Source: Anaerolineae bacterium (GTDB lineage: Bacteria > Chloroflexota > Anaerolineae > UBA3071). From it: a DNA stretch of 64,000 nt. Below are positions 3,245-52,743 of the stretch, piece by piece (position 1 is the first letter of the stretch; the number at the start of each line of letters is the position of its first letter). The DNA is taken from assembly GCA_029907105.1 (NCBI GenBank), contig JARYMM010000004.1, positions 65,364 through 129,363 of the forward strand. The letters are read 5' to 3'. The notes beneath the pieces were generated by a model. That model had not been told where the DNA came from, did not search any database, and saw nothing but the letters and a program-made list of their open reading frames with translations. The translations under genes were made by a program, and so were the position numbers.

Positions 3245-4204
3245 CTACGGCCTGCTGCGGCCGCCGAGACCGAACAGAGACTGGAAGAAACCGGGCGGCC
3301 TGGGCACCTCCGGCCTCTCCGCCTCCTCCCACAGGCCGCTGCTGCGCTGCCGCAGCCATTGCAGGCGTGCCTGCATCACCTCCTCGAAAGCCGCCTCCAC
3401 CTGTTCCACGCTGCCGGCGATGATCATCTCCTTCCATTCCTGCAACGCCGCCGTGTAGGCATCAATCCAGCGGACGATATTCTGGCGATTGTACAGGCAG
3501 GCATCGCGGAAGACGGCCGGCGTCTCCGAAGCAAACTGTGTGCTGCTCTCGTATTGGCCGCCGGCCAGCTTGCGCATGTCCCGCCAGGAGCCGCCGCCGG
3601 TGGTGCTGCGCAGCAGCACCGCGGCCAGGACGGCCGGCAGATGATCCACCGCCGCCATCAGCCCGTCGTGTTCGGCGGCGTCCAGGAAATAGGGCTGCGC
3701 GCCGAGCCGCTCCACCAGTCCCGAGGCCAGGCGCACGGCATCCGGCGCCGCCCTCGGCGAGGGGCAGAGACAGTAGAGCGCGTTCTTCAGGAGGTCGGCC
3801 GACGCTTCTTCGGCCCCCGCACCGGCAGCGCTGATCACCGGATCGCCACCCACGAAATGGACACCCTCGGGCAGAAGCTCCTCCGCCCACTGCAGGACGG
3901 GCGTCTTCAGGCTGGCTGTGTCGGTGACCAGACAGCCTTCCCTGAGATAGGGCGCGATGACCTGCAACGTGTCCCTGATGGCCGTCACCGGCAGGGCCAG
4001 GATGACGATGCTGGCCCCTTCGCAGGCATTGATGAGGTTCCAGTCGGTGCTGTCCACCGCCTTGCGCCTGCGCGCCTCGCCGGCCGCCTTCGGCTCTTTG
4101 TCGTGCCCAACGATGTCGTAGTTACGGGTGCCCTGGCTCAGCGCCAGGCCCACCGAGGTGCCCACGAGACCCAAACCCACAATGCTTATCTTGGTCTTGG
4201 CCAT
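3245..4204 (-). CDS. tyrA: Prephenate dehydrogenase
   Basis: N-terminal IVGLGLVGTSVGLAL Rossmann motif with the TyrA-like body. Confidence 0.75.
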   Translation of the reverse strand: MAKTKISIVGLGLVGTSVGLALSQGTRNYDIVGHDKEPKAAGEARRRKAVDSTDWNLINACEGASIVILALPVTAIRDTLQVIAPYLREGCLVTDTASLKTPVLQWAEELLPEGVHFVGGDPVISAAGAGAEEASADLLKNALYCLCPSPRAAPDAVRLASGLVERLGAQPYFLDAAEHDGLMAAVDHLPAVLAAVLLRSTTGGGSWRDMRKLAGGQYESSTQFASETPAVFRDACLYNRQNIVRWIDAYTAALQEWKEMIIAGSVEQVEAAFEEVMQARLQWLRQRSSGLWEEAERPEVPRPPGFFQSLFGLGGRSRP

Positions 4205-11345: not shown

Positions 11346-11460
11346 CAGCGGGGCAAAGACTCGAACATTCAGGCCGCAGCCCAAAGGTCCGACCCGAGGA
11401 GTCGAAAGCAGCAGCTCATTCGGAAACCTGGAACCTGCAACCCGGAACCTGGAACCCACA

Positions 11461-17423: not shown

Positions 17424-17768
17424 TCATCCTTTCTGCGTTGTCTTCTTCCAGCCGCCCAGCAGCCGGCCCATCTCGGCCACCAGGCTGGCGGCATGTTGAT
17501 ATTGGCCGGGCCTGAGCCATCCCCAGCGCGCCGAGAGCCGCAGGTACAGCCGCACCTTGTCCAGGGCTGCGTCGGCCTGCTCGATCTTGGCCAGGCGGGC
17601 TTTGCCCCGGCAGTTGTTCGCCTCGATGATCAGCTCCTGGAAGTCCAGCGCCGCATCCAGCAACCGCCTGGTGACCATGAAGCGCTGGCTGCGGGGGAAA
17701 TTGTTGGTCACCGGCATCAGCCAGGTGATGAAATCGAAGGTGCGCGTGAAGAGCGGCATTTGCTCCAT
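17424..17768 (-). CDS. avd: DGR accessory variability determinant (Avd, four-helix-bundle protein)
   Basis: 114 aa; NFPRSQRFMVTRRLLDAALDFQELIIEANN pattern typical of Avd and TIGR02436; directly downstream of the DGR reverse transcriptase. Confidence 0.7.
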   Translation of the reverse strand: MEQMPLFTRTFDFITWLMPVTNNFPRSQRFMVTRRLLDAALDFQELIIEANNCRGKARLAKIEQADAALDKVRLYLRLSARWGWLRPGQYQHAASLVAEMGRLLGGWKKTTQKG

Positions 17769-17774
17769 GAAACG

Positions 17775-18851
17775 TTATCCTCTTGGCGTCTGGATGACCA
17801 GGCTCCCCAGCACCGCCCGCCGCAGCCCTTTGGTATCGCCGTAGCGGGCGTGGTTAATCCACCCCTGCACCGAAGCTGTCACCCGATCCAGGCTGATCTC
17901 CCCGGCGGCATAATCCTGCAGCAATCCCTTGAGCCGCCGGCGGTAGGCAATCCCTTTGCGCCGCTTCAGCCGTCGCTGCTGGGGGAAAACGACAAAGCCC
18001 AGGAAAGGGATGCCCTGTCCCACCGGCCGAACCTGAGCGCGTGTCTCGTGGATAGTCAGCCGCAGCCGGGCTAGTCGCTCCACGGTGGCTTCTTTCCAGG
18101 CCCACATTTCTCGCTTATCGTCACCGAAGAGCAGGAAATCGTCCACATAGCGCAGATAGGCCGGGCAGCGCAGTTCTCGCTTGACGAAGTGGTCGAAGGG
18201 ATTGAGATAGCAGTTGGCCCAGAACCGGGAGGTGAGGTTGCCGATGGGCAGGCCTCGCGGCCGGTGTATGGCCAGCAGATCGTCGTCGGGAAAGTAAACC
18301 ATCTGGTACTCTTCCGAGAGCACTCCGATGCCGCTTTCCAGGATGCGATCCACGAGCCACATGATGCCGGGGTCGGCGACCTTGTGCGCCAGAAGCTCCC
18401 GTAGGATAGCATGATCTATCGAGGGGAAGAACTGGCGCACGTCGCATTGCAGCACGTAGCGATGGCGGCGGGCGAACTGCTGGCAGCGATCGAGCGCTCG
18501 ATGCGTTCCTTTGCCCACGCGGTTGGCGTAGCTCTCCTCGATGAAGCTGTGCTCGAAGAGCGGTTCGATGACCTGGCACAGGGCATGGTGGACGACGCGG
18601 TCACGAAATGGCGCGGCGGAGATGAGACGGCGCTTGGGTTCGTGGATGTGGAAACTGCGGTAGGGGCCGGGGCGATATGTCTGCGTCGCCAGTTCCTCCT
18701 GCAACTGGATGAGGTTGTCTTCCAGGTGGTACTCGAAGCTGGCGGCAGGAGGCCGGCCTCGCTTGCCTTTGGACGCCCGGCGATAAGCGCACAACAGGTT
18801 GTCCCAGACATAGACCTGGGCCAGACTCGGAGGGAGAAGTGTCGTCGTCAT
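17775..18851 (-). CDS. DGR reverse transcriptase
   Basis: 358 aa from [12 protein letters not shown]; [11 protein letters not shown] (YxDD) catalytic motif and an [14 protein letters not shown] motif; the upstream in-frame extension of the ORF is the TR, not protein. Confidence 0.85.
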
Positions 18852-18977
18852 GGCGCATCTGGTCTTGAACTCAGACGGAGAGAAAACACCGGCGGCCCGT
18901 TCCAGGGACGCGCCCAGGGAACGGGCCGCCGGGCGGGATATGACCCCCGCCCACGTGTATTCGCCCGGCCCTGTAGC

Positions 18978-19050
18978 CCTCACCCTCCCCCCAACCCCCT
19001 CCCTCTCCCAACTTTGGGAGAGGGAGGGGGTTGAGGGGGAGGGAGAGGGG
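18978..19050. repeat. GC-rich imperfect palindrome in the TR-to-RT spacer
   Basis: ccctcaccctccccccaaccccctccctctccca-actt-tgggagagggagggggttgagggggagggagagggg. Confidence 0.55.
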
Positions 19051-19319: not shown

Positions 19320-19452
19320 GGAGAGCCATGAGACCGCCACCACCCGAAACCCGTTGTTGTCGTTGCGGTTGTTCGGGTTGTTCCTGTTGCGATAGGCGCA
19401 GCGGACGTTTCTGCGATTGTTGTTCCACGTGCCGCCACGTAGCACCCGCGGC
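19320..19452 (-). repeat. DGR template repeat (TR)
   Basis: About 133 bp that match the VR except at template adenines; coding-strand AAC-rich (translates as [37 protein letters not shown]). Confidence 0.85.
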
Positions 19453-19559: not shown

Positions 19560-19580
19560 GAGGGGGGCACAGCCCCCCTC
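19560..19580. repeat. GC hairpin downstream of the VR (gagggggg-cacag-cccccctc)
   Basis: An 8-bp G/C stem about 65 nt 3' of the VR end on the coding strand. Confidence 0.4.
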
Positions 19581-19646
19581 AGACTCCCCCCACAGAGATC
19601 AGGGACTCAGAGTTCCAGAGACCAGAGACTCCAGAGGCCAGAGGGG

Positions 19647-19781
19647 GGAGAGTCAGGAGACCGCCACCACCCGAAACCCGAAGTTGTCGTTGCGGTAGCC
19701 CGGGAAGTACCCGTCGCGAAAGGCGCAGCGGACGTCCCTGCGATCGTCGTACCACGCGCCGCCACGAAGCACGCGCGGCGC
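19647..19781 (-). repeat. DGR variable repeat (VR) at the 3' end of the target gene
   Basis: Aligns to the TR with 18 substitutions, all at TR adenines; the 3'-terminal about 28 nt (IMH-like) is near-identical to the TR. Confidence 0.85.
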
Positions 19782-22529
19782 ATCTCCTTCAACGTCCTGA
19801 AGTTTCCGCTCCTTTTGAACGTAGCCCTGGTAATCGCCCACCCATTGCGTCAGACACCATTCCCAGACGTTGCCGCTCATGTCCAGCACACCATAGGGAC
19901 TGGCTCCGGCGGGAAAGAGGCCCACGGCGCTGGTCGTGCCGATGCCCGTGTCGCCCATGTTGCACTTGCTCTCGTCGAACTCGCCTTTCCAAGGGTAGAT
20001 GCGGCCATCGGTGCCCCGGGCGGCCTTTTCCCACTCTGCTTCCGTCGGCAGGCGGATGACGGTTCCCGGTTTCAGGTTCCAGGTTTCAGGTTTTCCCTCC
20101 CGCCAAATCCGCAATCCGCATTCCGCATTCCGCAATCTCTCCGTGAGCCAGCGACAGAAGGCCAAGGCTTCGTACCAGGTGACGCCGACGACGGGGTGGT
20201 TGGGCAGGTCGAAGACGCCGCCGTATTTCTCCGGCCCGGTGCGCTCACCCCGCCACTGGAGGCCGGCCTGTGTCCACCAGTCTTTGTTGCGGTAGCCATC
20301 GGGATCGTCCACAAACGCCTGGAATTGCTCGTTGGTGATGGGGTAGCGGGAGATGAGGTAGTCGTAGGGCAGGGGGTGCTCGTGCTGCGGCAGTTCATTA
20401 TCCCAGGCCTCCGGGTCGTGCTTCTTGTCGCTGCCCATGGTGAACGGGCCGGCGGGGACGGGGCACCAGAGGATGTCGGGCAACCCCTCCCCCAACCCCT
20501 CCCCGACACGGGGAGGGGAGAAGAGGCCCACGCCAGGACGGGGGTCGTCCAGGCGGGCCAGCACCTGTCCGGCTTCAACCCGCGCCGGCACTGAGACCCC
20601 CTCCAGATGGCGCTCGACAAAATCGGCCAGTTGTCGGGCCAGTTGCTGACGAGCAGTGTCATACCAGCCCACCCGATGCGGGGGGATTTCCAGCAACGCC
20701 CGGCCCGCCCAGGCCAGGCCAAAGGCCCGCCGGTCACCTGCCTCCGCCAATTCAGCTAACTCTTCAAGCAGGAAGCGGCGGGCCTGCTGTGGCCATTGCA
20801 GCAGGTAACCCGCCATCAGCAAGAACACCTCTAGCCACCAACTGCGCCCTGCGTGTTCCCGCAAGAAGCCAGTCCAGGCCTCACCGCGGCCGCGCAGGTT
20901 GTCCACCAGGTAGTTGGCCGCCAGGAACTCCTGCACGGTCAGGTGGTCGCCAAAGCTATATCCACCTTCGTGCTGATAGAGGATCCCGCTGCGCTCGGCC
21001 ATCAGGCTCAGGAACTCTGCCGCTTCCTTCTCCGCATCCCGCCGCCGTTCCAGGTTCAGGTATTCTTGCATGAAGGGGGCCAGGATGCGCCGCACCAGAT
21101 CCTGTTCATCCACCACGACCAGGGCATCTTGCTTCCGACGGGAGGCCTGCTCCGGCTCGGCAAGCTCGTGGGTCTGATAGGCAGCATAGGCCAGGTAGAG
21201 ACGGCGGTCTTCGGCCGGCCAACGGGCGTCGCGCAGGGAAGGCACTGCCTCAGCCCCCTCTTCTTCATGCAGCCGCTCCCCCAGGAGCACACTGACGTAG
21301 GCATGATATAACTCGGCCCGTTGCTCGGGCAATTGCCGGCCGGCATAGTGAATAATGGTCGCTGTCCAGACCATCAATGGGGTCTTGACCATTTCCTGCA
21401 ACAGGTCGGAGCTTTTGATACGCTCGACGAGCAGCCGGGCGCGCTCGGCGGCCACGTCCGGATCGGGCTCCAGGCCGGCATAGAGGCGCCTGGCAATGAA
21501 TTGCCACTGGGCCGGCGTCAGGTCACGCACCGTGGCCAGGTCAAAGCGCTCGTTGAGCTGGGCTCCGGCGTAGGCGGCCACCCGTGCGGTGACCAGGTAA
21601 CGGTTGCCCGGCCAGTCGTCGGCCAGACGTTCGATGATCTGCCGCACGAGGGCGCGGTGATCAGGGTCAGCCACCTCGTCCAGTGCATCGAGCAGCAGCC
21701 AGCAACGGCCAGCCCGGATCTGCGCCGAGAGGAAACCGTGCGGCACCTTGTCCGGGTGCCAGCGTTGGAAGTGATCGTCCACGAAACGCAGCAGGCCCTG
21801 CACATCGCGATGATATGTGTGAGGGCTCGTCTGGCAGGCGTGCTCGAAGTTGCGCAAGGCTACGAAGACCGGCAAGGGCAGGGGCGAGACGGTCAGGCCG
21901 AGTTCAGCTCGAGCCAAATCGGGCTCGGCGCAGGCCAATACGGTGGCCACCAGGCGCAAGACGGTGGTCTTGCCGCAGCCGGCCTGGCCGATGATGGCCA
22001 GGTTGCCACTCAGAGCCAGCATCTCGGCCAGGGAGATGTCGCGGCGGGCCTCGTCTCTGCTCTCTTTCTTCTCCACACCCAGAGGCGAGACCGGGCGGCC
22101 CGGTTGCCAGTCGAAACGCAAAGGGGTATAGATGCCCTCTTCGCCAAGCAAGGGAAAGCGGTCGGCCGCGCCCTTGAACTCGGAAAGCTGCTTGTAAGGC
22201 CTTGTCTCCACCAGACCGCAGGCGGAGCGCATCGTCTCCAGATAGGTGGCGACGATCGCCTCGTCATCTTCAGCAGGGCCACCGGCTGGAGGCAAGACCG
22301 ATTGCTCCAATTCTTTCAAGCGGTCTTCCAACTCTCGAATGGTTGCTTCCTCGTTTTCGATCTGATTCTGCAGGTGCAAAGGCACCATACCGGCTCCGAA
22401 GCGAGCAGCATCCAACTCCAGCTTCCGCAAGTTGCGCTCGTGCTGGGCCAGCAGTCGCTGCAGGTGCTTCTGCTCCTCAGTGATCGGATCTTCGAGGCGC
22501 GATGGTCTGAGAGTGGTCTGTGCAGACAT
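19653..22529 (-). CDS. DGR target protein: N-terminal coiled-coil, STAND (NACHT-like) NTPase, C-terminal FGE-sulfatase/C-type-lectin-fold domain carrying the VR
   Basis: Walker A GQAGCGKTT; FGE-type fold ending in RGGAWYDDRRDVRCAFRDGYFPGYRNDNFGFRVV; start at MSAQTTL with a GGAGAGGG RBS. Confidence 0.8.
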   Translation of the reverse strand: MSAQTTLRPSRLEDPITEEQKHLQRLLAQHERNLRKLELDAARFGAGMVPLHLQNQIENEEATIRELEDRLKELEQSVLPPAGGPAEDDEAIVATYLETMRSACGLVETRPYKQLSEFKGAADRFPLLGEEGIYTPLRFDWQPGRPVSPLGVEKKESRDEARRDISLAEMLALSGNLAIIGQAGCGKTTVLRLVATVLACAEPDLARAELGLTVSPLPLPVFVALRNFEHACQTSPHTYHRDVQGLLRFVDDHFQRWHPDKVPHGFLSAQIRAGRCWLLLDALDEVADPDHRALVRQIIERLADDWPGNRYLVTARVAAYAGAQLNERFDLATVRDLTPAQWQFIARRLYAGLEPDPDVAAERARLLVERIKSSDLLQEMVKTPLMVWTATIIHYAGRQLPEQRAELYHAYVSVLLGERLHEEEGAEAVPSLRDARWPAEDRRLYLAYAAYQTHELAEPEQASRRKQDALVVVDEQDLVRRILAPFMQEYLNLERRRDAEKEAAEFLSLMAERSGILYQHEGGYSFGDHLTVQEFLAANYLVDNLRGRGEAWTGFLREHAGRSWWLEVFLLMAGYLLQWPQQARRFLLEELAELAEAGDRRAFGLAWAGRALLEIPPHRVGWYDTARQQLARQLADFVERHLEGVSVPARVEAGQVLARLDDPRPGVGLFSPPRVGEGLGEGLPDILWCPVPAGPFTMGSDKKHDPEAWDNELPQHEHPLPYDYLISRYPITNEQFQAFVDDPDGYRNKDWWTQAGLQWRGERTGPEKYGGVFDLPNHPVVGVTWYEALAFCRWLTERLRNAECGLRIWREGKPETWNLKPGTVIRLPTEAEWEKAARGTDGRIYPWKGEFDESKCNMGDTGIGTTSAVGLFPAGASPYGVLDMSGNVWEWCLTQWVGDYQGYVQKERKLQDVEGDAPRVLRGGAWYDDRRDVRCAFRDGYFPGYRNDNFGFRVVAVS
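20061..20138. repeat. In-frame heptanucleotide repeat block inside the target gene
   Basis: ggttccc ggtttca ggttcca ggtttca ... cgcaatc cgcattc cgcattc cgcaatc; encodes NAECGLRIWREGKPETWNLKPG within the FGE domain. Confidence 0.6.
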
Positions 22530-22712
22530 GATACCCTCTCCTGCTCGCGGCGGACGGCCACGTCCGCCGCCTCCCTGCTTCCCCTGGTGCATAGCATAGC
22601 CAGAACCCTGAAGCCGTCGGGCTGAAAGAGCAAAGCCCTTCGGGCTAGCTGCTTTCAGCCCCGCAGGGGCTTGGCCCTCTCAGCGCGGGGCTTGCAGCCC
22701 CGCCTTCTTCAG

Positions 22713-28862: not shown

Positions 28863-31800
28863 ATGGCCCGCACCCAAACCCTGATCCGCTCCCTGCTCAC
28901 GGCCCTGGGCGTGGCCCTGGCCATTGCCGGTCAGTGGGCCCTGCTCCAGGCCCGGCAGCCGGGGAGCCGCCTGACCTGGCCCCTGGGCGCCGCCCTCCTG
29001 GCCCTGGGTGCGCTGCTCTTCGCCTTCACCGCGACGGATATTCCCCTGGGTGAGCAGAGGAAGCGGAAGGGACAAAAACCTTCCGCTTTTCCGCTGACGA
29101 TCCGCCTTCCGCACCTGCCCTCCTCGTGGGCCCTGCCGGCCGACCTCCTGGCCGTGCTCCTCATCACGGCCATCGCCGCCGCCGCCCGCTTCTACCGCAT
29201 CGCCGAAACCCCGGCCGGCCTGTGGCTGGACGAGACCGACATCGCCAAACAGGCCCTGGAAATCGTCAACGGCCTGCGCCCCAGGCCGTGGCAGGTGGCC
29301 CGCCTGGAGGTGCCCTGGCTGTACCACTACTACGTCGCCCTCTTCTACAAACTGCTCGGCCCCGGCTATCTCACGGTCAAGCTCCCCCATCTTATCAGCA
29401 GCACCCTCACCGCGCCGGTGCTCTACCTGCTGGCCCGCCAGTTCCTCGACCGGCCCATCGCCTTTCTCAGCGCTCTGCTCTGGGCCACCATGCGCTGGTC
29501 GGTCAACATGAGCCGCTGGGGGCACGCCAACACCCTCACCCTCTTCTGGATCTGCACCGTGTTCTTCCTGCTGTGGCGAGCCCAGGCCACCGGCAAGTGG
29601 CGCTGGTGGGTCCTCGGCGGCCTGGCCCTGGGGCTGAGCCAGTACGCCTACCAGAGCACGCGCGCCCTCGTCGCCATCGTCGCCGTCTTCCTGATCTACC
29701 GCGCCCTGTGCCCACGCCGCTACTTCCGCCGCCTCTGGCCGCAGATCCTGCTCTTCTGGCTGCTCTTCGCCCTCGTCTATGCCCCTCTGGCCTGGACCTA
29801 CATCCAGAATCCCGAGCTGTTCCTGGAGCGCAGCCGGGCCATCAGCATCTTCAACCCCCTCTTCACCCGCGACCCGTGGGCGACGCTCAAAGAAAACATC
29901 GGCAAATATGCCGGCGTCTTCCACTTCCGTGGCGATCACAATGGCCGGCACAACATCCCCGGCCAACCCATGCTCGACCCCATCACCGGCGTGCTGGCCG
30001 TCCTGGGCCTGGCCCTGACCCTGCGCCGCCCGCAGCGCCCGCACCACGCGCTGCTGCTGCTCTGGGTCCTGCCCTTCCTTGCCGTGGGCATCCTCACCAC
30101 CGAAGCGCCCAACACCTTCCGCATCTACGCCCTCACCCCGGCCATCGCCCTCCTGGCCGGCCTGGCCCTGCAAGCAATCAGAGATTGGATACTGGGTATC
30201 GGGCATTGGTCATTGGAGGATGTCGCCTCGATATCCAATATCCGATACCTGCCACTGGCCATCCTGCTCACCGTCGCTATTGCCGCTGCCGCCTACCTGA
30301 ATCTCGCCCTGTACTTCAACGTCCAGGCCACCCACCCGGCCGTCGTCGGCATGTTCAACGTCGGCCCCACCCGCGTCGGCCAGTACATCGCCACCCTGCC
30401 CGACGACACCACCATTTACCTGGACCGCGAGTTCTGGGCCTTCTCGCCCATCGAGGTCATCAACCCCGGCCGCCCGCTCACCCGCCTCAAGGCCCCCGAT
30501 CATGTCCCGCCACCGCCCGCCCAGAACGCTCCCGTCGCCTACATCCTGGGCACCTATGGCCAGTTGCTCGTGCCTTGCCTCCAGAGCCTCTATCCCGACG
30601 CCCTGGTGGAACCCGGCCTGGGCCCTAACGATCAACCCATCTTCACCGGCGTGCGGCTGAGCGGCGAGACAGTTGCCCGCAAGGGGCTGCGCGGCACCTG
30701 GTGGGCCGGCCTGGAACCTGGCGGCCAGCCCGCCGCGAGCGGGGTGACGCCGCTCGATCCCCTGCCCATCACCCCGCCGGCCACCGCTGACCTGCGCGGC
30801 GGCCTCTACCTGCCGAAGCCCGGAACCTATGGCCTGCGCATGGAAGGAGCCGACCGCCTGCGCCTGACCCTTGCCGGCCGCACGGCGCTGGAGGCCCCCG
30901 CCCAGCCCGTCTCCCTCACCCTGCCCGGCGGGCTCGTTTCCGCCCATCTCGAGCTCACCGTCGCCGGTCCGGCGGCCCCGCGCCTCCTCTGGCGCCCGCC
31001 CGGCGCCGGCGATTGGGAACCCATCCCCGGGCAGAACTGGTATCCCCTGGACATCCCCGAAGGCGGCCTGCTGGCGCTCTCCTTCGAAGGCGGCGGCCTG
31101 CGCACGCCGCCCGTGCGCATCACGTCCGATGCCTGGCTCTACGCCGACAACGCCGGCGACCTGGCCACGGCAGCCATGCGCTGGCTCGGCCGCCTGCATA
31201 TCCCCGAGGCCGGCCTCTACCAGTTCGGCCTGTCGTCCGATGATGCCTCGCGGCTGTGGATAGATGACCAGCTCGTCGTGGACAACTGGGGACTGCACGG
31301 GGCTGGCTGGATGGACCGCCCGGCCGAGCTCACCGCCGGCTGGCACGGGGTGCGCATAGACTACATTGACAACGGCGGCAGCCACTGGTTCGAGGTCCGC
31401 TGGACGCCGCCGGGGCAGTCGCCCGGCCGCCTGCCGGCGGAACTCCTGAGCTGGAGCGAGGACGACCTGGCCCAGGCCCTGACGCCGCCGGAGAACCCGC
31501 CCCCTGTGCTGCGCGTCCTCAATGCTGCAGGTGAACCCGTGGGCACCGTGCCCATCGCCGCCGCCCGCCTGGGCGACCCCAAGTTCAATCAACCCATCGG
31601 CGACGCCAACTTCCAGAGCTGGCCCATGAAGCTGCAGAGCACGATGTACGACCACGGCATCGGCGTCTACGGGCCGGGGGAAATGGACTTCGACCTGGGA
31701 GGGGGCTACCTGCGCTTCCAGGGCCTGGTGGGGGTGGATACCGATACCTACGGCGACGCCCACACCCAGGTGCAGATCATCGGCGACGGCCGCGTCCTCT

Positions 31801-31964
31801 GGGACAGCGGCCAGATCCACCCCTGGGACCCTCCCACCCCCTTCGACGTGGATGTGAGCGGCGTGCAGCGCCTGACCCTGAAACAGATCGAGGAGGGGCA
31901 CTTCGAGGGTCGCGGCGACGCCGTGGATTGGGTGAACCCCGTCCTACGCAAACCTGAAACCTGA
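28863..31964 (+). CDS. GT-C family glycosyltransferase (PMT/ArnT-like) with C-terminal PA14 and NPCBM-like domains
   Basis: Polytopic N-terminal half with a WLDETD DE motif; a PA14-like segment (GLYQFGLSSDDASRLWIDDQLVVDNWG); an NPCBM-like C-terminus (DHGIGVYGPGEMDFDLGGGY...VQIIGDGRVLWDSGQI). Confidence 0.65.
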   Translation: MARTQTLIRSLLTALGVALAIAGQWALLQARQPGSRLTWPLGAALLALGALLFAFTATDIPLGEQRKRKGQKPSAFPLTIRLPHLPSSWALPADLLAVLLITAIAAAARFYRIAETPAGLWLDETDIAKQALEIVNGLRPRPWQVARLEVPWLYHYYVALFYKLLGPGYLTVKLPHLISSTLTAPVLYLLARQFLDRPIAFLSALLWATMRWSVNMSRWGHANTLTLFWICTVFFLLWRAQATGKWRWWVLGGLALGLSQYAYQSTRALVAIVAVFLIYRALCPRRYFRRLWPQILLFWLLFALVYAPLAWTYIQNPELFLERSRAISIFNPLFTRDPWATLKENIGKYAGVFHFRGDHNGRHNIPGQPMLDPITGVLAVLGLALTLRRPQRPHHALLLLWVLPFLAVGILTTEAPNTFRIYALTPAIALLAGLALQAIRDWILGIGHWSLEDVASISNIRYLPLAILLTVAIAAAAYLNLALYFNVQATHPAVVGMFNVGPTRVGQYIATLPDDTTIYLDREFWAFSPIEVINPGRPLTRLKAPDHVPPPPAQNAPVAYILGTYGQLLVPCLQSLYPDALVEPGLGPNDQPIFTGVRLSGETVARKGLRGTWWAGLEPGGQPAASGVTPLDPLPITPPATADLRGGLYLPKPGTYGLRMEGADRLRLTLAGRTALEAPAQPVSLTLPGGLVSAHLELTVAGPAAPRLLWRPPGAGDWEPIPGQNWYPLDIPEGGLLALSFEGGGLRTPPVRITSDAWLYADNAGDLATAAMRWLGRLHIPEAGLYQFGLSSDDASRLWIDDQLVVDNWGLHGAGWMDRPAELTAGWHGVRIDYIDNGGSHWFEVRWTPPGQSPGRLPAELLSWSEDDLAQALTPPENPPPVLRVLNAAGEPVGTVPIAAARLGDPKFNQPIGDANFQSWPMKLQSTMYDHGIGVYGPGEMDFDLGGGYLRFQGLVGVDTDTYGDAHTQVQIIGDGRVLWDSGQIHPWDPPTPFDVDVSGVQRLTLKQIEEGHFEGRGDAVDWVNPVLRKPET

Positions 31965-31986
31965 AACCTGGAACCCGAAACCCGTC

Positions 31987-33271: not shown

Positions 33272-34891
33272 ATGCGAACGATTGAACTCGACGGCGAGTC
33301 GCTGACCATCGAGGACGTGGTGATGGTAGCACGGGCAGCGCCGGGGACGGTGGCCTTGCGCCTGACCGACGAGGCACAAGGAAAAGTGCAACGGGCGCGG
33401 GAGGCCGTGGAGCATTTCGTCGCCCGCGGCGACGTGATCTACGGCATCACCACCGGCTTCGGCGCCTTCCAGGACAAGGTCATCCCCCCCGATCAGGTGC
33501 GCCAATTGCAGCGCAACATCCTTATGAGCCACGCCGTGGGCGTGGGCGAGCCTTTCTCTACGGAGGTGGTGCGGGCGATGATGCTGGTGCGGGCCAACAC
33601 GCTGGCCAAGGGGCATTCCGGCATCCGCCTGACCACGTTGCAGACGTTATTGGCCATGCTGGAGCGCGGCGTGCATCCGGTCGTGCCCACGCAGGGCTCC
33701 CTGGGGGCCAGCGGCGACCTGGCTCCCCTGGCCCACATGGCCCTGGTGCTCATCGGCGAGGGAGAGGCTGACTACGAAGGGGAACGGTTGCCGGGACGGG
33801 AGGCACTGCGGCGCGCCGGGCTGGAGCCGGTCACCCTGGAGGCCAAGGAGGGATTGGCGCTGACCAACGGCACGGCGCTGATGGCCGGCCTGGGCGCGCT
33901 GCTGGTGGTGGAGGCAGAGCGGACAGCACGGGTGGCGGACATCGCCGGCTGTCTCAGCCTGGAGGCGCTCTACGGCACCACGGTGGCCTTCGACCCCCGC
34001 ATCCACGCCGCCCGCCCCCATCCGCGCCAGGTGGAATGCGCCGAACGGCTGCGCCGCCTGCTGGCAGGATCCACTTTTGTGCGGGATGGCCAACTCGTCA
34101 CGCATCACGCATCACGCATCACGCCTGGCGGCAGCAGGCCACGAAGTGACGAGGCTCCCCGCGATCCCCAGGACGCCTACACCCTCCGCTGCATTCCTCA
34201 GGTGCACGGGGCCTGTCACGATGCCATCAAGTACGCCCGCTGGGTGGTGGACATCGAACTGAACAGCGCCACCGATAACCCCCTCATCTTCTTCGACGAC
34301 GAGGGAAGGCCAGAGTGTCTTTCCGGCGGCAACTTCCACGGCGAGCCGCTGGCCATCGCCTTCGACTACCTGAGCCTGGCGCTGACCGAGCTGGGCAACA
34401 TGGCCGAACGCCGCCTGACCCGTCTGACCGACGGCAGCAGCAACCGCCACGTGCTGCCCGACTTTCTGACCCGGCACGGCGGCCTCAACTCCGGCTTCAT
34501 GCTCACGCAGTACACGGCCGCCGCGCTGGCCTCGGAGAACAAAGCCCTGGTGCATCCGGCCAGCGCCGACACCATCCCCACCTCGGCCAACATGGAGGAT
34601 CACGTCTCCAACGGGCCGGCGGCGGCCCGTCAGGCACGGCGCATCCTGCGCAACCTGAACTACATCCTGGCCATCGAGCTGTTGGCCGCCGCCCAGGGCA
34701 TTGACTTCCGCCGCCAGGTGCTGGGCGCGCAGGCGCGATTGGGTCAAGGCACGGCCGCCGCCTACCAACTCGTGCGCCAGCGTGTGCCATTTCTGGAACG
34801 GGACGCCATCATGTACCCCTACATCGAAGCGGTGCACGACCTGGTCGTCAGCGGCGAACTGGTGGCCGCGGTGGAAGCAGCGCTGGCATAG
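33272..34891 (+). CDS. hutH: Histidine ammonia-lyase
   Basis: GSLGASGDLAPLAH MIO-forming motif; GGAGG RBS. Confidence 0.85.
   Translation: MRTIELDGESLTIEDVVMVARAAPGTVALRLTDEAQGKVQRAREAVEHFVARGDVIYGITTGFGAFQDKVIPPDQVRQLQRNILMSHAVGVGEPFSTEVVRAMMLVRANTLAKGHSGIRLTTLQTLLAMLERGVHPVVPTQGSLGASGDLAPLAHMALVLIGEGEADYEGERLPGREALRRAGLEPVTLEAKEGLALTNGTALMAGLGALLVVEAERTARVADIAGCLSLEALYGTTVAFDPRIHAARPHPRQVECAERLRRLLAGSTFVRDGQLVTHHASRITPGGSRPRSDEAPRDPQDAYTLRCIPQVHGACHDAIKYARWVVDIELNSATDNPLIFFDDEGRPECLSGGNFHGEPLAIAFDYLSLALTELGNMAERRLTRLTDGSSNRHVLPDFLTRHGGLNSGFMLTQYTAAALASENKALVHPASADTIPTSANMEDHVSNGPAAARQARRILRNLNYILAIELLAAAQGIDFRRQVLGAQARLGQGTAAAYQLVRQRVPFLERDAIMYPYIEAVHDLVVSGELVAAVEAALA
34098..34124. repeat. 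Heptanucleotide tandem repeat (TCACGCA, about 3.9 units) inside the hutH coding sequence
   Basis: tcacgca tcacgca tcacgca tcacgcc, encoding THHASRITP. Confidence 0.6.
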
Positions 34892-47752: not shown

Positions 47753-49704
47753 AAGCCGACGAGCAAGGTATACGGCGCGGGCCCCAGCGCTGCTGGCAAT
47801 TCCAGCCGATGGACGTCCAACAGCGTCTCGCCCGGCTGCCAGAGCGACGTGGGGTAGTACACACCGCCGGGCAGGTGATCGGACTGCGCCACCTTCTCCC
47901 CCTGCGCATCCAGCAGATGCACGAAGCTGGTGTAATCCCCGTCCAGGGGGCGCAGCGGCTGCCAGTGCAGCGCCACCTCCAGCACGCTGCCCCCCTCCAG
48001 AGGCGAGCGCAGATCGTAGCCCAGCAACTGTATGGCCCCGCCCACGGCCAGCCCCGATGATCTGCCAGGCGGCCCGCTGGCGGCAGGCCCCACCACCTCT
48101 ACCAGATTCCGCACCGGCCGCAGGGCGAACTTCACCTCCAGCCCCGGCATGGGCTTGATGAGATACACCGGCCGGCCGGTCGAAAGCGCCCGCTCTACCA
48201 CCTGTCCCACGTTAGCCCACCCCGGCTCGCCCACGATGCGCGGGAACAGGCCCGTGATGTCGGGCCGCACGCCCTCCACCTGCTGCAGGTACCAGAGGGG
48301 CATCATCTCATCGCGGTCGTTGCTGATCAAGATAGCCTCCGCCGGCGGTGGCGCAGCCAGGATGGCCTGCCAGCGGTCACGCCCGGCGCTGTCCCCACTG
48401 CGGTCAACGAGGGAAAGGTTGTGCAGCAGCAGGGCGATGGGCAGGGTCAGCGATAGCAAGACAATCGCTGCAGATAGCACACTCGGAATTGTATATTTGA
48501 GATGGCGACCTGCGACCTGCGACCTGCCACCTGCCCCCACCGCTTCAGCTATCGCACCAATGCCGACGCCCATCCAGCAGGCCCAGATGAGCGCGGGAGC
48601 GATGAAGAACACATGGATGTCGCCGATGCCATAGAAGAGATTGAAGAGCAACAGGGCCAGGAAGCTGAGGCCGGTGAGCGCTAATAGCTGTCCGCGTCGT
48701 CCGGCGACCAGGCGCGCCAGCCCTACGAGGCCCAGGACGATGCCCGCCCAGCCGAACTGGCGCCACAGGAGCTCCCCGGCCAGCGCGAGCCGCGCCGCTG
48801 CGGCCGCGGGAGGGAGCAACTCGCCGACGAAGACGCGGCCCAGGACGAAGTCCAGGAAGCCACGCAGTCTGTGATCGTAAAGCTGTAAGGAATGCCCGGC
48901 GCTGAGCGGCACGGTGAGGTATGGCGTGTGCGGGGCACGCAGGGGGATGTACAGGTAGAGCAGCAGGGGCAAGAGACAGGAGGCAAGAAGCAAGAGGCAA
49001 GAAGCAGGAGGCAAGAGGCAAGAAGCAAGGGAGGAGGGGCGAGAGGCAAGGGATGAAGGGCGAGAAGCGAGGCGCCGCCGGGTCAGCCAGAGGAAAAGCA
49101 GGACTGCGGGAGCCAGTAACAACATGGTGCGATGGTGCGTCAGCCCCAAACCGTATATCAAGGCCACCACGGCCAGACGGCCCAATGCCCCCTCAGCCCC
49201 CTCCTTTCCCTCGTTTCCTCTGTCTCCTTCCTTCCACCACAGCAACAGCCAGAGCCCCCCGGCCACAAATGCCGCGTGCAGCGTGTAGATCTCGGCAATC
49301 ACCGCCTGCGACCAGAAAGTCTCGGAGCAGGCGAAAGCCAGGGCGGCGACAGCCGCGGCCAGGAGGCGAGGCAATGTGGGCAGTCTGGGCGTCGCCTCTC
49401 GCAGCAGCCGCCTGGCCAGCAGGTAGGTCAGCGCCACGGCCACGCCGCCCCACAGCGCCGAGAAGAGGTTCATTCGCCAGGCCACGTCGCCCCAGGGGAT
49501 GATGTGCGTCCACAGCCAGCCCAACATGAGGTAGAGGGGGTAGCCGGTGGGGTGGGCGATGCCGCCCAGGTAGGCAGCGAACTGCAGTTCTCCGCTGTCG
49601 CCGCCCAGCAGGCCAGGGGCCAGCGTGCGCAGGTAGAGGCCGAAGGCGGCCAGGCCCAGCAGAGCGGCAAGGGTTCGGTTCAAACGAGATATGGGATTGA
49701 CCAT
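47695..49704 (-). CDS. DUF2723/TMEM260-like GT-C family membrane glycosyltransferase
   Basis: GGDSGE and PTGYPLY motifs near the N-terminus; polytopic; contains repeat-encoded low-complexity inserts. Confidence 0.6.
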   Translation of the reverse strand: MVNPISRLNRTLAALLGLAAFGLYLRTLAPGLLGGDSGELQFAAYLGGIAHPTGYPLYLMLGWLWTHIIPWGDVAWRMNLFSALWGGVAVALTYLLARRLLREATPRLPTLPRLLAAAVAALAFACSETFWSQAVIAEIYTLHAAFVAGGLWLLLWWKEGDRGNEGKEGAEGALGRLAVVALIYGLGLTHHRTMLLLAPAVLLFLWLTRRRLASRPSSLASRPSSLASCLLPPASCLLLLASCLLPLLLYLYIPLRAPHTPYLTVPLSAGHSLQLYDHRLRGFLDFVLGRVFVGELLPPAAAAARLALAGELLWRQFGWAGIVLGLVGLARLVAGRRGQLLALTGLSFLALLLFNLFYGIGDIHVFFIAPALIWACWMGVGIGAIAEAVGAGGRSQVAGRHLKYTIPSVLSAAIVLLSLTLPIALLLHNLSLVDRSGDSAGRDRWQAILAAPPPAEAILISNDRDEMMPLWYLQQVEGVRPDITGLFPRIVGEPGWANVGQVVERALSTGRPVYLIKPMPGLEVKFALRPVRNLVEVVGPAASGPPGRSSGLAVGGAIQLLGYDLRSPLEGGSVLEVALHWQPLRPLDGDYTSFVHLLDAQGEKVAQSDHLPGGVYYPTSLWQPGETLLDVHRLELPAALGPAPYTLLVGFYRQPSMERLGEPLRLAGP
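48505..48532. repeat. Heptanucleotide tandem repeat (GCGACCT, 4 units) in a coding region
   Basis: gcgacct gcgacct gcgacct gccacct. Confidence 0.55.
48965..49070. repeat. Purine-rich tandem repeat (GGCAAGARG-like units) encoding a LASRPSSLASRPSSLASCLL low-complexity segment
   Basis: ggcaagaagcaagag gcaagaagcaggag gcaagaggcaagaag ... Confidence 0.55.
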
Positions 49705-49827: not shown

Positions 49828-52743
49828 CTACCTCTCCACCCTCACCCAATCCACCGCTGCGGCCAGCGGACGGCGGTCCGGGTTGCGGCCCAGCCGCAGC
49901 CAGGCATTGGGGGCAGCTACCAGCTCCAGCGCTGTGCCCGGCGCGGCGCCCTTGACGCCGATAAGGGCATGGGCCTGTCCCACAGCGCCGCGCAGGTCAC
50001 CCTGCGCGCCCAGGCTGTGCAGGGCGGCGACGGCCTCGGCGGTGACATGCTGACCGGCATCGTCCTTCGTGGCCACGACGACGATGCGCCCCTCGGGGAT
50101 CTGGGCCACGAACTCCGCCAGCCGCTGTGCCTCGTACTCGTTGGCCCAGGTGTCGAAGCCCCGCTTGTCCAACAGGCGGCCCGTGCGGGCGTCGAGCACA
50201 GCCACGTTGTAGCCCCGCCGTCCCGCCGAACCGTCGGTCTTGGCCCCGGCCTCGTCGTAGAGGGAGATGTAGGCGTGATCGGCGGCGGCCTCGATCTCGA
50301 TGTCCACCGGCGTCGCCACCCCCGTGGCGCCGATGGCCGTCTGGCCCGGAAGCACGTCCCGCGGGCGTTCCACCCGACCAAAGCGCAGCTTCAGCCGGTT
50401 GAGGCCCGATCGCACAGCCGCTGCCGGCAGCGGCACGTCCAGCACCTGCCAGCCCTCGGACAGAAGCTGCGGCTGGTCCAGCGGCTGGCCGTTCAGGAAT
50501 ACCTGCAGCGATTGCGGTGTGGCCCCAGGGTAACTGAAGGGAGCGATGCGCAGGCCCAGGCGGTAGTCGGCAAGCTCCCGCAGGGGGAAGAAAATCTCCG
50601 CCTCTGCGGCCGCCCAGTTGGCCGTCTCGCCGAAGATAACCTCGTCGTCGTGCCAGCCGGCGCCGCGATTCGGCCAGGCCGCCTGCGTGCCCAGGTCTAT
50701 CTCCAGCGGAAAGGTGAGCATCGGCTGTAGCACGCGGTAGGCGCGCACGCCGTCCTGGTCGTAGAAGGGCTCGCTCTCCAGCGGCAGCACCTGGCGGGCG
50801 TACTGCCAGGTGCGGGCGTAGGTGTCCTGATAGGGCCAGCGGCCGGGGATGGGCGGCAGCACGACCAGATAGCGCACGTCGTAAAGCTGCATCAACCCGG
50901 CGGCCTGGGCGCGGGCCGCCGCATCGGTCTCCGCATCGGGCTCACGATACATCTCCACATCGGCCAGCGCCCGGAAGAGCGGGACGCGGCGGAAATACTC
51001 CATTTTGAACGAGGGGGCGCGGGCGATGTTGCCGCCGATGATGGGCTTGCCGTGCACGGTCTGATATATCTGGAGTTGCGTGCGCTCGGAGCCGAGGGGG
51101 CCGAAAGAAGTACGCCAGCCCAGCGGCAGGTGCATCACGGCGAATTCCCCCGGCTCGGCGGCGATCTGCTCGTACACCGGGGGCACGCGGGCGTCGGTCA
51201 GCGGCGTTGGAACGGCTGCGTGCTCGAACAGGATGACAAGGGAAAAGAGGGACACGAAGAGTGCCCTCCGCCTCCCTGTTCTCCCCGTCGCCTCAGCCCC
51301 CGGTGCCTTAGCCCTAAGCAATTGCAGCAGGAAGTATGTGCCGAAGCCCGCAAGTACTGCTAACCCCAACATCAAGAGCACGCTGTTGCGATTGGGGGCG
51401 CGGTTGGCCTGCACGATGGGAATATAGTGCAGCAGGGCATAGGGCAAGGGGAAGGTGGCCTCCAGCCCGTCCAGGTCGAAACGATAGCGGCCGTTGATCT
51501 GGAGAAGCGGCCCCAGGCAAAAGAGCCCGAAGAGAAGCGCTGTCCAGCCCCAGACCCGCACCTGCTGCCGGTAGCGGAGCAGGCCCAGCAAGGCCAGCGC
51601 CAGCGTGGCGTAGCCCAGAAAGACCGTGTTGACGTCGGCAAAACGCGCCGTGCCCTCTTCCACAGCCCGCAGCTCGCGCACCCAATCGCCGCCCCACAGC
51701 GGATGCAACGCCGTCGGCGTGACCATCCCCACCAGGTCAGCCGACAGCTTGACCGCCTCGCCCCACCCTTCCAGCGCATATTCCCCTGTGGCGAACTGGC
51801 GCACGATGGGAACCAGCACAGGCGCCCAAAGCACGGCCACAGTCACGCCAATGACCATCAGCCCCCAAACGGGCTTCAGGTTCCATCGCCGAACGCCGAA
51901 CGCCAAACGCCGAACGTTGAACGCCAGCACAAGCAGGGTGAAGATGCCCAGGAAGACGCCGAAGATCATCTCTGCCAGGACGGCCAGGGTGAAAAAGAGT
52001 CCGGCCAGCAATGCGTTGCGCACCAGGCACTGGCGCTTGTCAGCGCGGACGGTCTTGAGCAAATAGAGGGCATAGAAGGGCAGCCACTGGGTGGTCACCA
52101 TGTCGTAATGGCCCAGCGCAGCGTAGACGGCGCGGTTGGCGGCGAAGGCATAAACCAAACCGGCCGTCATAGCTGCCAGACTGCTGATCAAGGGGTTAAG
52201 GGATAAGGGATAGGGGGCAGGCGCTGCCCTACACGCCGTTTCCCCTGGCCCATAACCCCTAACCCTTAGCCCATAACCCCTATCCCCTGCCACAAGAAGA
52301 TAGCGGACAAGCAGGAAAGCCCCATAGCCGCTGAGCACGGTGGACAGGATGAGGGTGGCGTTGCTCGCCGCCGGCAGGCTCATCACCATCTGCAGGGGCA
52401 AGGCAATAAGGGCATTGAAGAAGTTATAGGTATGCAGGATCAGGTCAATGCCCAGGGGGAAGAAGAGCAGGTCCGTGTGCAAGGGGCTGGTGTGCAGGTC
52501 AATCACCGCCCGTTTGAACCACCAGATGTTCCAGACGAAGGTGTATTCGTCGAAGGCCCAGGTGGCACTGCCGGGCACATGGGTGGCGAAATGGGCGATC
52601 AGAGGGTAGCTGAGAAGCAGGGCCAGGACCAGAAAGAGGGCCAGGACAGCGAGGTGAAGCACTTTGCCGTCGGCCAGAGTTAACGCCTGCTTCCCCCGCC
52701 CTGTCCCAGCGAAGGGGGGACAATCATCTTTGCGCTCGGGCAT
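49828..52743 (-). CDS. Large GT-C-like polytopic membrane protein with a C-terminal soluble domain (putative glycosyltransferase)
   Basis: AFDEY DE-type motif in the first loop; more than 10 TM helices; a 500-aa extracytoplasmic C-terminal region. Confidence 0.5.
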   Translation of the reverse strand: MPERKDDCPPFAGTGRGKQALTLADGKVLHLAVLALFLVLALLLSYPLIAHFATHVPGSATWAFDEYTFVWNIWWFKRAVIDLHTSPLHTDLLFFPLGIDLILHTYNFFNALIALPLQMVMSLPAASNATLILSTVLSGYGAFLLVRYLLVAGDRGYGLRVRGYGPGETACRAAPAPYPLSLNPLISSLAAMTAGLVYAFAANRAVYAALGHYDMVTTQWLPFYALYLLKTVRADKRQCLVRNALLAGLFFTLAVLAEMIFGVFLGIFTLLVLAFNVRRLAFGVRRWNLKPVWGLMVIGVTVAVLWAPVLVPIVRQFATGEYALEGWGEAVKLSADLVGMVTPTALHPLWGGDWVRELRAVEEGTARFADVNTVFLGYATLALALLGLLRYRQQVRVWGWTALLFGLFCLGPLLQINGRYRFDLDGLEATFPLPYALLHYIPIVQANRAPNRNSVLLMLGLAVLAGFGTYFLLQLLRAKAPGAEATGRTGRRRALFVSLFSLVILFEHAAVPTPLTDARVPPVYEQIAAEPGEFAVMHLPLGWRTSFGPLGSERTQLQIYQTVHGKPIIGGNIARAPSFKMEYFRRVPLFRALADVEMYREPDAETDAAARAQAAGLMQLYDVRYLVVLPPIPGRWPYQDTYARTWQYARQVLPLESEPFYDQDGVRAYRVLQPMLTFPLEIDLGTQAAWPNRGAGWHDDEVIFGETANWAAAEAEIFFPLRELADYRLGLRIAPFSYPGATPQSLQVFLNGQPLDQPQLLSEGWQVLDVPLPAAAVRSGLNRLKLRFGRVERPRDVLPGQTAIGATGVATPVDIEIEAAADHAYISLYDEAGAKTDGSAGRRGYNVAVLDARTGRLLDKRGFDTWANEYEAQRLAEFVAQIPEGRIVVVATKDDAGQHVTAEAVAALHSLGAQGDLRGAVGQAHALIGVKGAAPGTALELVAAPNAWLRLGRNPDRRPLAAAVDWVRVER
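52192..52288. repeat. Palindromic insertion (gggttaagggataagggataggggg ... cccataacccctaaccc ... cccataacccctatcccc), in frame in the GT-C gene
   Basis: Inverted repeat arms with tandem 18-bp subunits; encodes GYGLRVRGYGPGETACRAAPAPYPLSLNP. Confidence 0.5.

Follow-up and report, generated by a model that had tools for sequence, protein, structure and literature searches.

Proteins in which a central NACHT or nSTAND1 NTPase is combined with a CLec (C-type lectin) domain of the FGE type, the latter diversified by a diversity-generating retroelement (DGR), have been described by Doré et al. (2024; PMC10907252). In the passages of that work drawn on here, the proteins are often cytoplasmic, their N-terminal extensions are often uncharacterized, and the hosts include filamentous Chloroflexi. 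Conflict systems that combine FGS domains with DGRs are the subject of the corresponding passages of Kaur et al. (2020; PMC7159879), so that the NACHT-CLec DGR architecture is already published. Here we describe a locus of this kind in a 64,000-nucleotide stretch of the genome of an Anaerolineae bacterium (GenBank assembly GCA_029907105.1, contig JARYMM010000004.1, positions 65,364 to 129,363), referred to below as the window and numbered from its first nucleotide. Our main concern is the DGR target gene, which carries two arrays of heptanucleotide repeats in frame within its FGE-type CLec domain.

One class of bacterial heptanucleotide repeat is the cyanobacterial short tandemly repeated repetitive (STRR) sequence. 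Other examples, as given in the relevant parts of PMC4679880 and PMC4692102, are GGGAATC in Xanthomonas, GGGGAYT in Nostoc and TAACTGA in Beggiatoaceae. The same parts report, after Mrázek (2007), that among long simple sequence repeats (SSRs) those with heptanucleotide units are the most over-represented in many large genomes of high GC content; they name slippage as the proposed cause and describe convergent or inverted pairs as common in Xanthomonas.

Our preferred explanation for the locus, to which we give a probability of roughly 0.6, is that the gene encodes a DGR-diversified NLR-like sensor and that the heptamer arrays are slippage repeats tolerated in a permissive, structured loop, with no second programmed system at work.

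The DGR and its target gene

The target gene ends in a variable region (VR; 19647..19779, minus strand) that comprises its last 42 codons, the stop codon and 6 nt beyond, and that forms a 133-nt direct repeat with a template region (TR; 19320..19452, minus strand) located by the repeat itself and by alignment with the VR. The two copies differ at 21 positions, and 19 of these 21 mismatches fall on adenines of the TR, which holds 32 adenines in all. Downstream of the target, on the same strand, lie the genes for the DGR reverse transcriptase (RT; 17775..18851, minus strand; 358 aa from ATG 18851; Pfam RVT_1, 2e-15; PADLOC RT, 1.3e-50) and for the bAvd accessory protein (17424..17768, minus strand; Pfam PF22296, 68.6 bits against a cut-off of 40). 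A protein identical to the latter, encoded on a MAG contig of 134.7 kb, is named 'diversity-generating retroelement protein Avd [Anaerolineae bacterium]' at NCBI. With an adenine-biased TR/VR pair, adjacent RT and Avd genes and a VR at the C-terminus of a CLec-fold domain, the locus is a chromosomal DGR of an Anaerolineae bacterium. PADLOC gave no match to the target protein and none to the Avd protein, and protein and contig searches turned up no near-identical copy of the VR region.

The target gene itself (19653..22529, minus strand) was delimited from the open reading frame (ORF) list, Pfam and AlphaFold2 and encodes 958 aa from an ATG at 22529. When read from a further in-frame ATG, at 22592, the ORF is intact for 979 codons and has the same stop end, 19653; ATG 22529 is the likelier start, since a GGAGAGG Shine-Dalgarno-like motif lies 7 nt upstream of it. 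The protein begins with two long, coiled-coil-like helices (22299..22478, minus strand; residues 18-42 and 51-77 from the methionine at 22529) that AlphaFold2 predicts with a confidence score (pLDDT) of ∼86-89. No recognized effector domain was found in this N-terminal part with Pfam, and the sub-threshold matches were all to coiled-coil families. A NACHT NTPase follows (21486..21998, minus strand; Pfam PF05729, residues 199-369, 35.4 bits, cut-off 26.7), with a Walker A motif GQAGCGKT (21966-21989, minus strand; residue 202) and a Walker B motif WLLLDALDE of the NACHT type hhhhD[GA]hDE (21675-21701, minus strand; residue 298). The full-length AlphaFold2 model (predicted template modeling score, pTM, 0.65) is confident for the NTPase module and shows an all-helical region from there to about residue 660. 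The C-terminal part is an FGE-sulfatase-type CLec domain with the VR at its end (19665..20462, minus strand; Pfam PF03781, residues 711-976, 191 bits). Modeled alone with an alignment of its own subfamily, this domain reached a pLDDT of 93.9 and a pTM of 0.93, and Foldseek matched the model to EgtB, OvsA, FGE and the Treponema DGR protein TvpA (2y3c). An FGE-type enzymatic activity is unlikely, since the equivalent C-terminal segment is the hypervariable VR (cf. PMC6328139). Directly before the domain, GGGGAGGGGTTG occurs twice (20481-20504) and encodes GEGLGEGL, apparently a second class of in-frame repeat; GEGxGVRA-like stretches occur in homologues at the same spot and in another loop.

Since the highest 19-residue Kyte-Doolittle mean of the protein is only 1.31, no membrane segment is expected, and from its sequence the protein looks cytoplasmic and of a signaling type. 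An earlier note on this stretch, which had been made by reading the sequence, called the gene a DGR target, gave the domain order as coiled-coil, NACHT-like NTPase, helical region and FGE domain with a terminal VR, and proposed an intracellular, signaling-type receptor. The adenine pattern and the adjacent RT and bAvd genes bear out the first of these points, Pfam, the Walker motifs and AlphaFold2 agree with the second, and the low hydrophobicity is in keeping with the third; the profile searches that the note had recommended for NACHT and FGE-sulfatase gave matches that were above the Pfam cut-off or strong. Of the three parts that make up a STAND NTPase, namely an N-terminal effector or adaptor, the NTPase and a C-terminal sensor, the CLec sensor and the NTPase are present, and the N-terminus is a helical hairpin with no recognized effector.

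In such a system, the TR transcript would be reverse-transcribed by the RT, with bAvd as accessory protein and with errors at adenines, and the resulting cDNA would replace the VR, rewriting ∼19 positions in the C-terminal ligand-binding surface of the FGE-type CLec domain. In a soluble, NLR-like NACHT/STAND NTPase whose N-terminus is coiled-coil-like, the diversified domain would be the sensing part and, by analogy with the published class, would sense a ligand, leading to oligomerization and signaling.

About 50 proteins with both NACHT and FGE domains, ∼50% identical to this one, are found in metagenome-assembled genomes (MAGs) of Chloroflexota, Anaerolineae and Caldilineaceae. As far as the class, that of 'antigen sensor' DGR targets in multicellular bacteria, is characterized in the passages of PMC10907252 and PMC7159879 used here, the locus resembles it in the NACHT domain with a C-terminal FGE-type CLec domain bearing the VR, in the predicted cytoplasmic location, in the adjacent RT and Avd genes, in the filamentous Chloroflexota host lineage and in an N-terminal extension that has no characterized domain. 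It differs in having a single target, where the published clade commonly has two, and in that no effector or adaptor domain and no neighboring peptidase was recognized. A heptamer-encoded loop is not mentioned in those passages of the two papers that a targeted term search matched.

Two in-frame heptamer arrays in the long connector of the FGE domain

Between the WYEA...CRWL helix and the RLPTEAEWE helix of the FGE domain lies a long connector, TERLRNAECGLRIWREGKPETWNLKPGTVIR (20052..20144, minus strand). The minus-strand translation across the heptamer block is RLRNAECGLRIWREGKPETWNLKPGT, and the reading of the block as ...LTERLRNAECGLRIWREGKPETWNLKPGTVIRLPTE... agrees with that of the earlier note. 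Array 1 (20106..20137, minus strand) reads ATTGCGG AATGCGG AATGCGG ATTGCGG on the coding strand and encodes RLRNAECGLR; Tandem Repeats Finder (TRF) reports it as 4.6 copies of AATCCGC with period 7 and 92% matches, and the lag-7 identity of this arm is 0.75. Array 2 (20061..20095, minus strand) reads AAAACCT GAAACCT GGAACCT GAAACCG GGAACCG and encodes KPETWNLKPGT; here TRF (20061-20092) reports the unit pair GGTTCCA/GGTTTCA with 94% matches, and the lag-7 identity is 0.78. Between the two, the coding strand reads atttggcgggaggg. The conserved core of the loop, LRIWREG (20094..20114, minus strand; ttg cgg att tgg cgg gag gga), has its first codons in the last unit of array 1.

Both arrays are in frame and inside the FGE domain, as the earlier note had stated and as TRF and the translation agree, and both consist of at least three head-to-tail copies of a 7-nt unit beyond what chance would give, which makes them heptanucleotide SSRs. 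A 7-residue repeat in the protein was considered as the source of the period of 7 and was ruled out, because four near-identical 7-nt units span only ∼9 codons and are read in all three phases. At an in-frame junction of array 2 the sequence is TGG, where a pure GAAACCT array would read TGA. The two arms of this gene are not complementary to each other (fold z = -0.66).

The AlphaFold2 prediction for the long connector is an extension of the preceding helix (to ...ERLRNA) followed by a β-hairpin formed by LRIWR and KPETW, with a pLDDT of ∼91. The block had been described in the earlier note as an extra loop. According to the model it encodes the C-terminal end of a helix and a β-hairpin, and not an unstructured addition.

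The long connector in related FGE domains

Behind the WYEA..CRWL helix the protein is ∼20 residues longer than most NACHT-FGE homologues, which have a different FGE subtype. In the FGE domains nearest to it, all metagenomic, connectors fall into length classes of ∼28, 36 and ∼51 residues, the last of which includes this gene. Long connectors share a conserved core, h-x-h-W-[RQ]-x-G-[KQ], which is LRIWREGK here, LRVWRAGQ in L002 and FQVWRDGQ in L013 (related loci are cited by L numbers). A segment of the same length with this core is found in many FGE domains from unrelated metagenomes; it is not an insert specific to this gene. The closest FGE relatives, L091, L092 and L012 (∼60-63% identity), all carry the long loop; it is therefore old in this lineage.

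In most long loops the core is flanked on either side by period-7 DNA, whose units differ between lineages. The units are GGTTTCA / TGAAACC in L012, L013, L058 and L093, CAGGTTG in L010, TGGCGAA in L019 and L034, GCAAATC in L024, TTCGACA in L049, TCAGCGAA (period 8) together with CTTCGTC in L002, and AGGATGC together with AAATCGG in L091, the closest relative (63% identical). Since most other relatives have period-7 arms, the repeats are characteristic of the family and not of this gene. The earlier note had named relatives with the segment and no repeat structure in their DNA as evidence against its reading, and such relatives do exist in part: the long loops of L001 (a Ktedonobacterales MAG), L023, L026, L031 and L032 have no DNA repeats, while most others keep period-7 arms. 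Clean arrays are absent from L018, L042 and L045, in which one arm or both still give a weak lag-7 signal.

The best period was a lag of 7 in 17 of 25 upstream arms and in 14 of 25 downstream arms. Lag-7 identity was at least 0.6 in 8 upstream and 6 downstream arms, a value that none of 2172 control windows taken from these genes reached, and 11 of 40 arrays lay in the loop segments, which make up 1.6% of the DNA examined. The residues encoded by the arms differ wholesale between homologues, and the core is kept.

Period-7 arrays elsewhere in the window and the lineage

Under a strict criterion, the window contains 6 period-7 arrays, compared with 0.0 in 20 Markov-1 randomizations; when periods 5-15 were searched in the same way, the only arrays were of period 7 and of period 14 (2 × 7). 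TRF gives ∼18 rows of period 7 or 14 for the window, several of them at gene ends or intergenic. In 599 kb comprising the window and related loci, 29 arrays had a period of 7 and 1 had a period of 8, and none had a period of 9-11.

The unit of array 2, written as (GRAACCY)n, recurs in the window at 11423, 31950, 33195 and 45811. In a PMT_2/PA14/NPCBM gene (28863-31964) the TGA stop lies within a (GAAACCT)n array (31950-31982), so that the repeat sets the C-terminus of the protein (...RKPET*). Other arrays are in frame within genes. An aromatic-amino-acid ammonia-lyase has four copies of TCACGCA (34098-34124) inside an insertion of ∼25 residues relative to solved enzymes; a TMEM260-like transferase has two arrays (48505-48534 and 48962-49072; LASRPSSLASRPSS...); and an ILEI-domain membrane protein has an array at 51887-51925 and an inverted pair at 52191-52281. 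Inverted heptamer pairs are also found in intergenic DNA of the window.

The flanks of related contigs hold heptamer arrays of up to ∼160 nt (L003:4924-5397, L003:958-1013, L030:1-44 and L082:387-438). Given such very long arrays in the flanks of Anaerolineae and Chloroflexota contigs, the period-7 habit is lineage-wide. Nothing ties the arrays to the DGR, and we see no link between the two.

Set beside the heptanucleotide SSRs of other bacteria, as covered by the parts of PMC4679880 and PMC4692102 cited above, the arrays are alike in the excess of period 7, in having ∼4 units, in occurring as inverted stem-loop pairs and at gene ends, and in varying in copy number. Those repeats are reported there as under-represented in coding regions, whereas several of the present arrays are in frame within genes. 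The other genomes also favor one unit each, whereas many units are used here and a single protein loop is a recurrent site across lineages.

Inverted arms

In about one-third of the long loops the arms are reverse complements of each other and are predicted to form strong hairpins (z from -4.5 to -6). Loci with arms of this kind are L010/L011, L012, L013, L058, L093 and L034, for which z ranges from -3 to -6. L034 uses a different unit (TGGCGAA / TTCGCCA), and its arms are still inverted.

Length steps, reading frame and an apparent loop replacement

Copy number varies between homologues: the loops of L024 and L019 differ from those of L025 and L064 by exactly 7 aa, which corresponds to 3 heptamer units. 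None of 83 assembled loops was frameshifted; this is a weak test, as consensus assemblies are blind to minority alleles. For the loop of this gene itself, no copy-number or frameshift variants were found, the best hit being 50% identical in a contig scan and 63% identical in a search of FGE proteins. Exact protein look-ups returned only NCBI MAG proteins (MDH7485139.1 and MDH7485140.1 belong to this MAG), and the look-up of Avd returned no contig. Repeat-mediated variability is thus evident only on an evolutionary time scale, between homologues. The earlier note had seen programmed and repeat-mediated variability in the same domain; the DGR part of this statement stands, but repeat change was seen only between homologues, and the arrays occur genome-wide.

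Contig L090 from Logan (ERR14790957) is 92% identical to the window and has no FGE region. In it, window position 20767 is joined directly to 18663, and with the missing 2.1 kb the FGE domain, the VR, the TR and the start of the RT gene are all gone. The junction reflects a deletion variant that arose naturally or else a chimera of the assembly. Two further irregularities were seen among the relatives. L071 (3241-3387) has an in-frame TAG just before the loop, and in L092:1-2361, a 63%-identical relative, the NACHT and FGE parts are two ORFs with an 11-nt overlap, from a frameshift or a split gene.

A pair of loci shows a change of the whole loop. Outside the loop, L010 and L021 are 84% identical in protein, and their flanking DNA is ∼94% identical, but the loops cannot be aligned. 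That of L010 (2209-2304) is an 85-nt heptamer-hairpin loop, and that of L021 (aligned 3313-3540) is 46 nt long and of the 36-residue class, as in the other members of the clade to which both belong. At the boundaries between L010 and L021 no target-site duplication can be seen. Comparison of the sequences indicates a recent, cassette-like loop replacement, which is most plausibly explained by gene conversion from a paralogue by way of the highly conserved flanks. The neighbor-joining tree of FGE domains is poorly resolved; it was used only to find this pair, and gains and losses were not counted on it. Tandem paralogous FGE targets with identical loop arrays occur at L002:15400-15640 and at L013:151 / L013:3358. 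These fit the published DGR loci with two targets and are potential donors for gene conversion.

Other features of the DGR region

In the spacer between the VR and the TR, directly after the stop codon, lies a degenerate heptamer-like array of CAGAGAC (19593..19643, minus strand; TRF period 7, 6.7 copies, 70% matches). About 75 nt after the stop codon the same spacer contains a GC-rich hairpin, GAGGGGGGCTGTGCCCCCCTC (19560..19580, minus strand), recognized by reading the sequence, with an 8-bp stem and a 4-nt loop. Hairpins that follow the VR are frequent in DGRs. The 19560-19580 hairpin occupies the usual position, and it may have the corresponding function. A near-perfect, G/C-rich palindrome of 73 nt (18977..19049, no strand assigned), found as inverted repeats I2 and I11, separates the TR from the RT gene as part of their spacer. 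An Rfam scan gave only sub-threshold matches to generic hairpins, at 18977-19049.

Discussion

The content of the DGR and its adenine pattern place the gene among known DGR targets, and the question that remains to be weighed is how the heptamer arrays came to lie in its ligand-binding domain. Under the explanation that we prefer, the arrays most likely arise and stay homogeneous through replication slippage and conversion within the array, a process very active in this lineage, as indicated by the period-7 arrays, often in inverted pairs, throughout the window and in related contigs. In the connector they would persist because the fold constrains nothing but the core and the length. Selection would hold the reading frame: length changes in steps of 3 units, and the codon that would be an in-frame TGA is TGG. 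The maintenance of frame, the 3-unit steps and the avoidance of the stop are observed. In addition, paralogous FGE genes could exchange the loop as a cassette, with gene conversion through the highly conserved flanks as the probable route.

Several points weigh against this explanation. Clean arrays persist at one site in homologues that are only 40-60% identical, with an enrichment of ∼23-fold over flanking DNA, more than a neutral model obviously predicts. Inverted, hairpin-forming arms may point to some mechanism, or to selection, at the level of the nucleic acid, and arm complementarity is better within loci than between them (mean rank 6.8 of 21). Finally, ongoing slippage at this gene is something that we infer.

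An alternative that we regard as unlikely is that the heptamer block serves adaptively as a second means of diversification, in which repeat turnover resizes and rewrites a ligand-binding loop and so complements mutagenesis of the VR. It would account for arm residues that change wholesale around a conserved core, for the 3-unit length steps and for the strong enrichment of arrays at this site, and the loop is predicted by AlphaFold2 to be ordered and of a surface type. Inserts that lie between the core helices are able to buttress the VR in DGR variable proteins of solved structure, as those at this general position do in TaqVP (PMC6328139); by analogy with these, the loop may be near the binding surface. 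The connector is comparable to inserts 1' and 2 of TaqVP and TvpA (PMC6328139) as an extra structured segment between core helices of an FGE-type CLec fold. It differs in being only ∼15-23 residues long and in being encoded by tandem repeats. Against an adaptive device, housekeeping genes of the window contain the same kind of array, several relatives keep the loop with no repeats, the length is nearly fixed at ∼51 residues, and no variants were found for this gene.

A more far-reaching proposal, which we hold to be quite unlikely, is that the heptamer arms and the core form a convertible cassette that is repeatedly installed and re-homogenized in the connector of DGR-diversified sensors. This cassette would provide a second, slippage-driven layer of change, comprising 7-residue rewrites, 3-unit steps and possibly reversible silencing by frameshift, with inverted arms promoting turnover.

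The inverted arms could instead have a function as nucleic acid. They might act as a hairpin of mRNA or DNA within the coding region, in pausing transcription or translation, in stabilizing the mRNA or in aiding DGR retrohoming ∼280 nt upstream of the VR. Such a function is very unlikely. It would explain the strong hairpins at several loci, the inversion in L034 with its different unit, the higher rank of self over cross pairs of arms and the inverted pairs formed by intergenic heptamer arrays of the window. However, the arms of the present gene are the non-complementary ones described above, and the tests for a common structure were negative. RNAalifold found 0 consensus pairs among 20 long loops. 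When the L093 hairpin was imposed on the alignment, 56.4% of cells were paired compared with 54.0% after shuffling, and its covariation score was reached by 34 of 500 shuffles. No match to an Rfam family was found. A hairpin common to the whole family was ruled out by the RNAalifold and shuffled-alignment results, despite the subset with strong hairpins. To our knowledge, DGR homing does not require an element upstream of the VR, which also counts against this alternative.

We consider it highly improbable that the arrays form a contingency switch, in which a change of one unit would frameshift the gene upstream of the VR and reversibly silence a potentially self-reactive sensor. As in the SSR contingency loci of host-adapted pathogens, the tandem repeat lies in an ORF and its unit is not a multiple of 3; two arrays would allow compensating shifts, the process behind the heptamers is evidently at work in the lineage, and the in-frame stop of L071 and the split frame of L092 are of the kind expected. 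In contrast to those loci, the arrays are short and imperfect, with 4-5 units, so that low rates of slippage are expected, and the weak test of 83 loops revealed no frameshifted alleles. The same arrays occur in housekeeping enzymes, which makes a role as a switch unlikely in general.

Just as improbable is a recent insertion into this gene of a mobile palindromic element, similar to a miniature inverted-repeat transposable element or a Rickettsia palindromic element (RPE; PMC10969869), for which the inverted arms of some homologues, the cassette-like swap between L010 and L021, the GRAACCY unit dispersed at no fewer than 4 other sites in the window and the precedent of RPEs, likewise short palindromic DNA translated in frame as a fold-compatible surface segment, might be cited, but RPEs are dispersed elements of ∼150 bp with a family consensus, the dispersed copies here share only a tandemly built 7-nt unit and no common element with ends, this gene's arms are non-complementary, L091, L092 and L012 are all long-loop, the core is a family-wide protein motif, and the L010/L021 boundaries show no target-site duplication.

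We return to the preferred explanation, that of a DGR-diversified sensor with tolerated slippage repeats. The architecture is one more Anaerolineae example of the published class of DGR-diversified NLR-like sensors and is routine. The literature passages matched by targeted term searches do not describe the recurrence of heptanucleotide arrays, in many uncultured lineages, at a single connector of the FGE/CLec fold. At that connector the core is conserved, the units drift, some arms are inverted, and at least one recent swap resembles the exchange of a cassette. The case also calls for caution, as an intragenic repeat need not be a device for variability. If the arrays are only mutational noise, they offer a clean natural case of slippage-prone DNA filtered by reading frame and fold; if selection is involved, two modes of hypermutation would be linked in one immune-like receptor.

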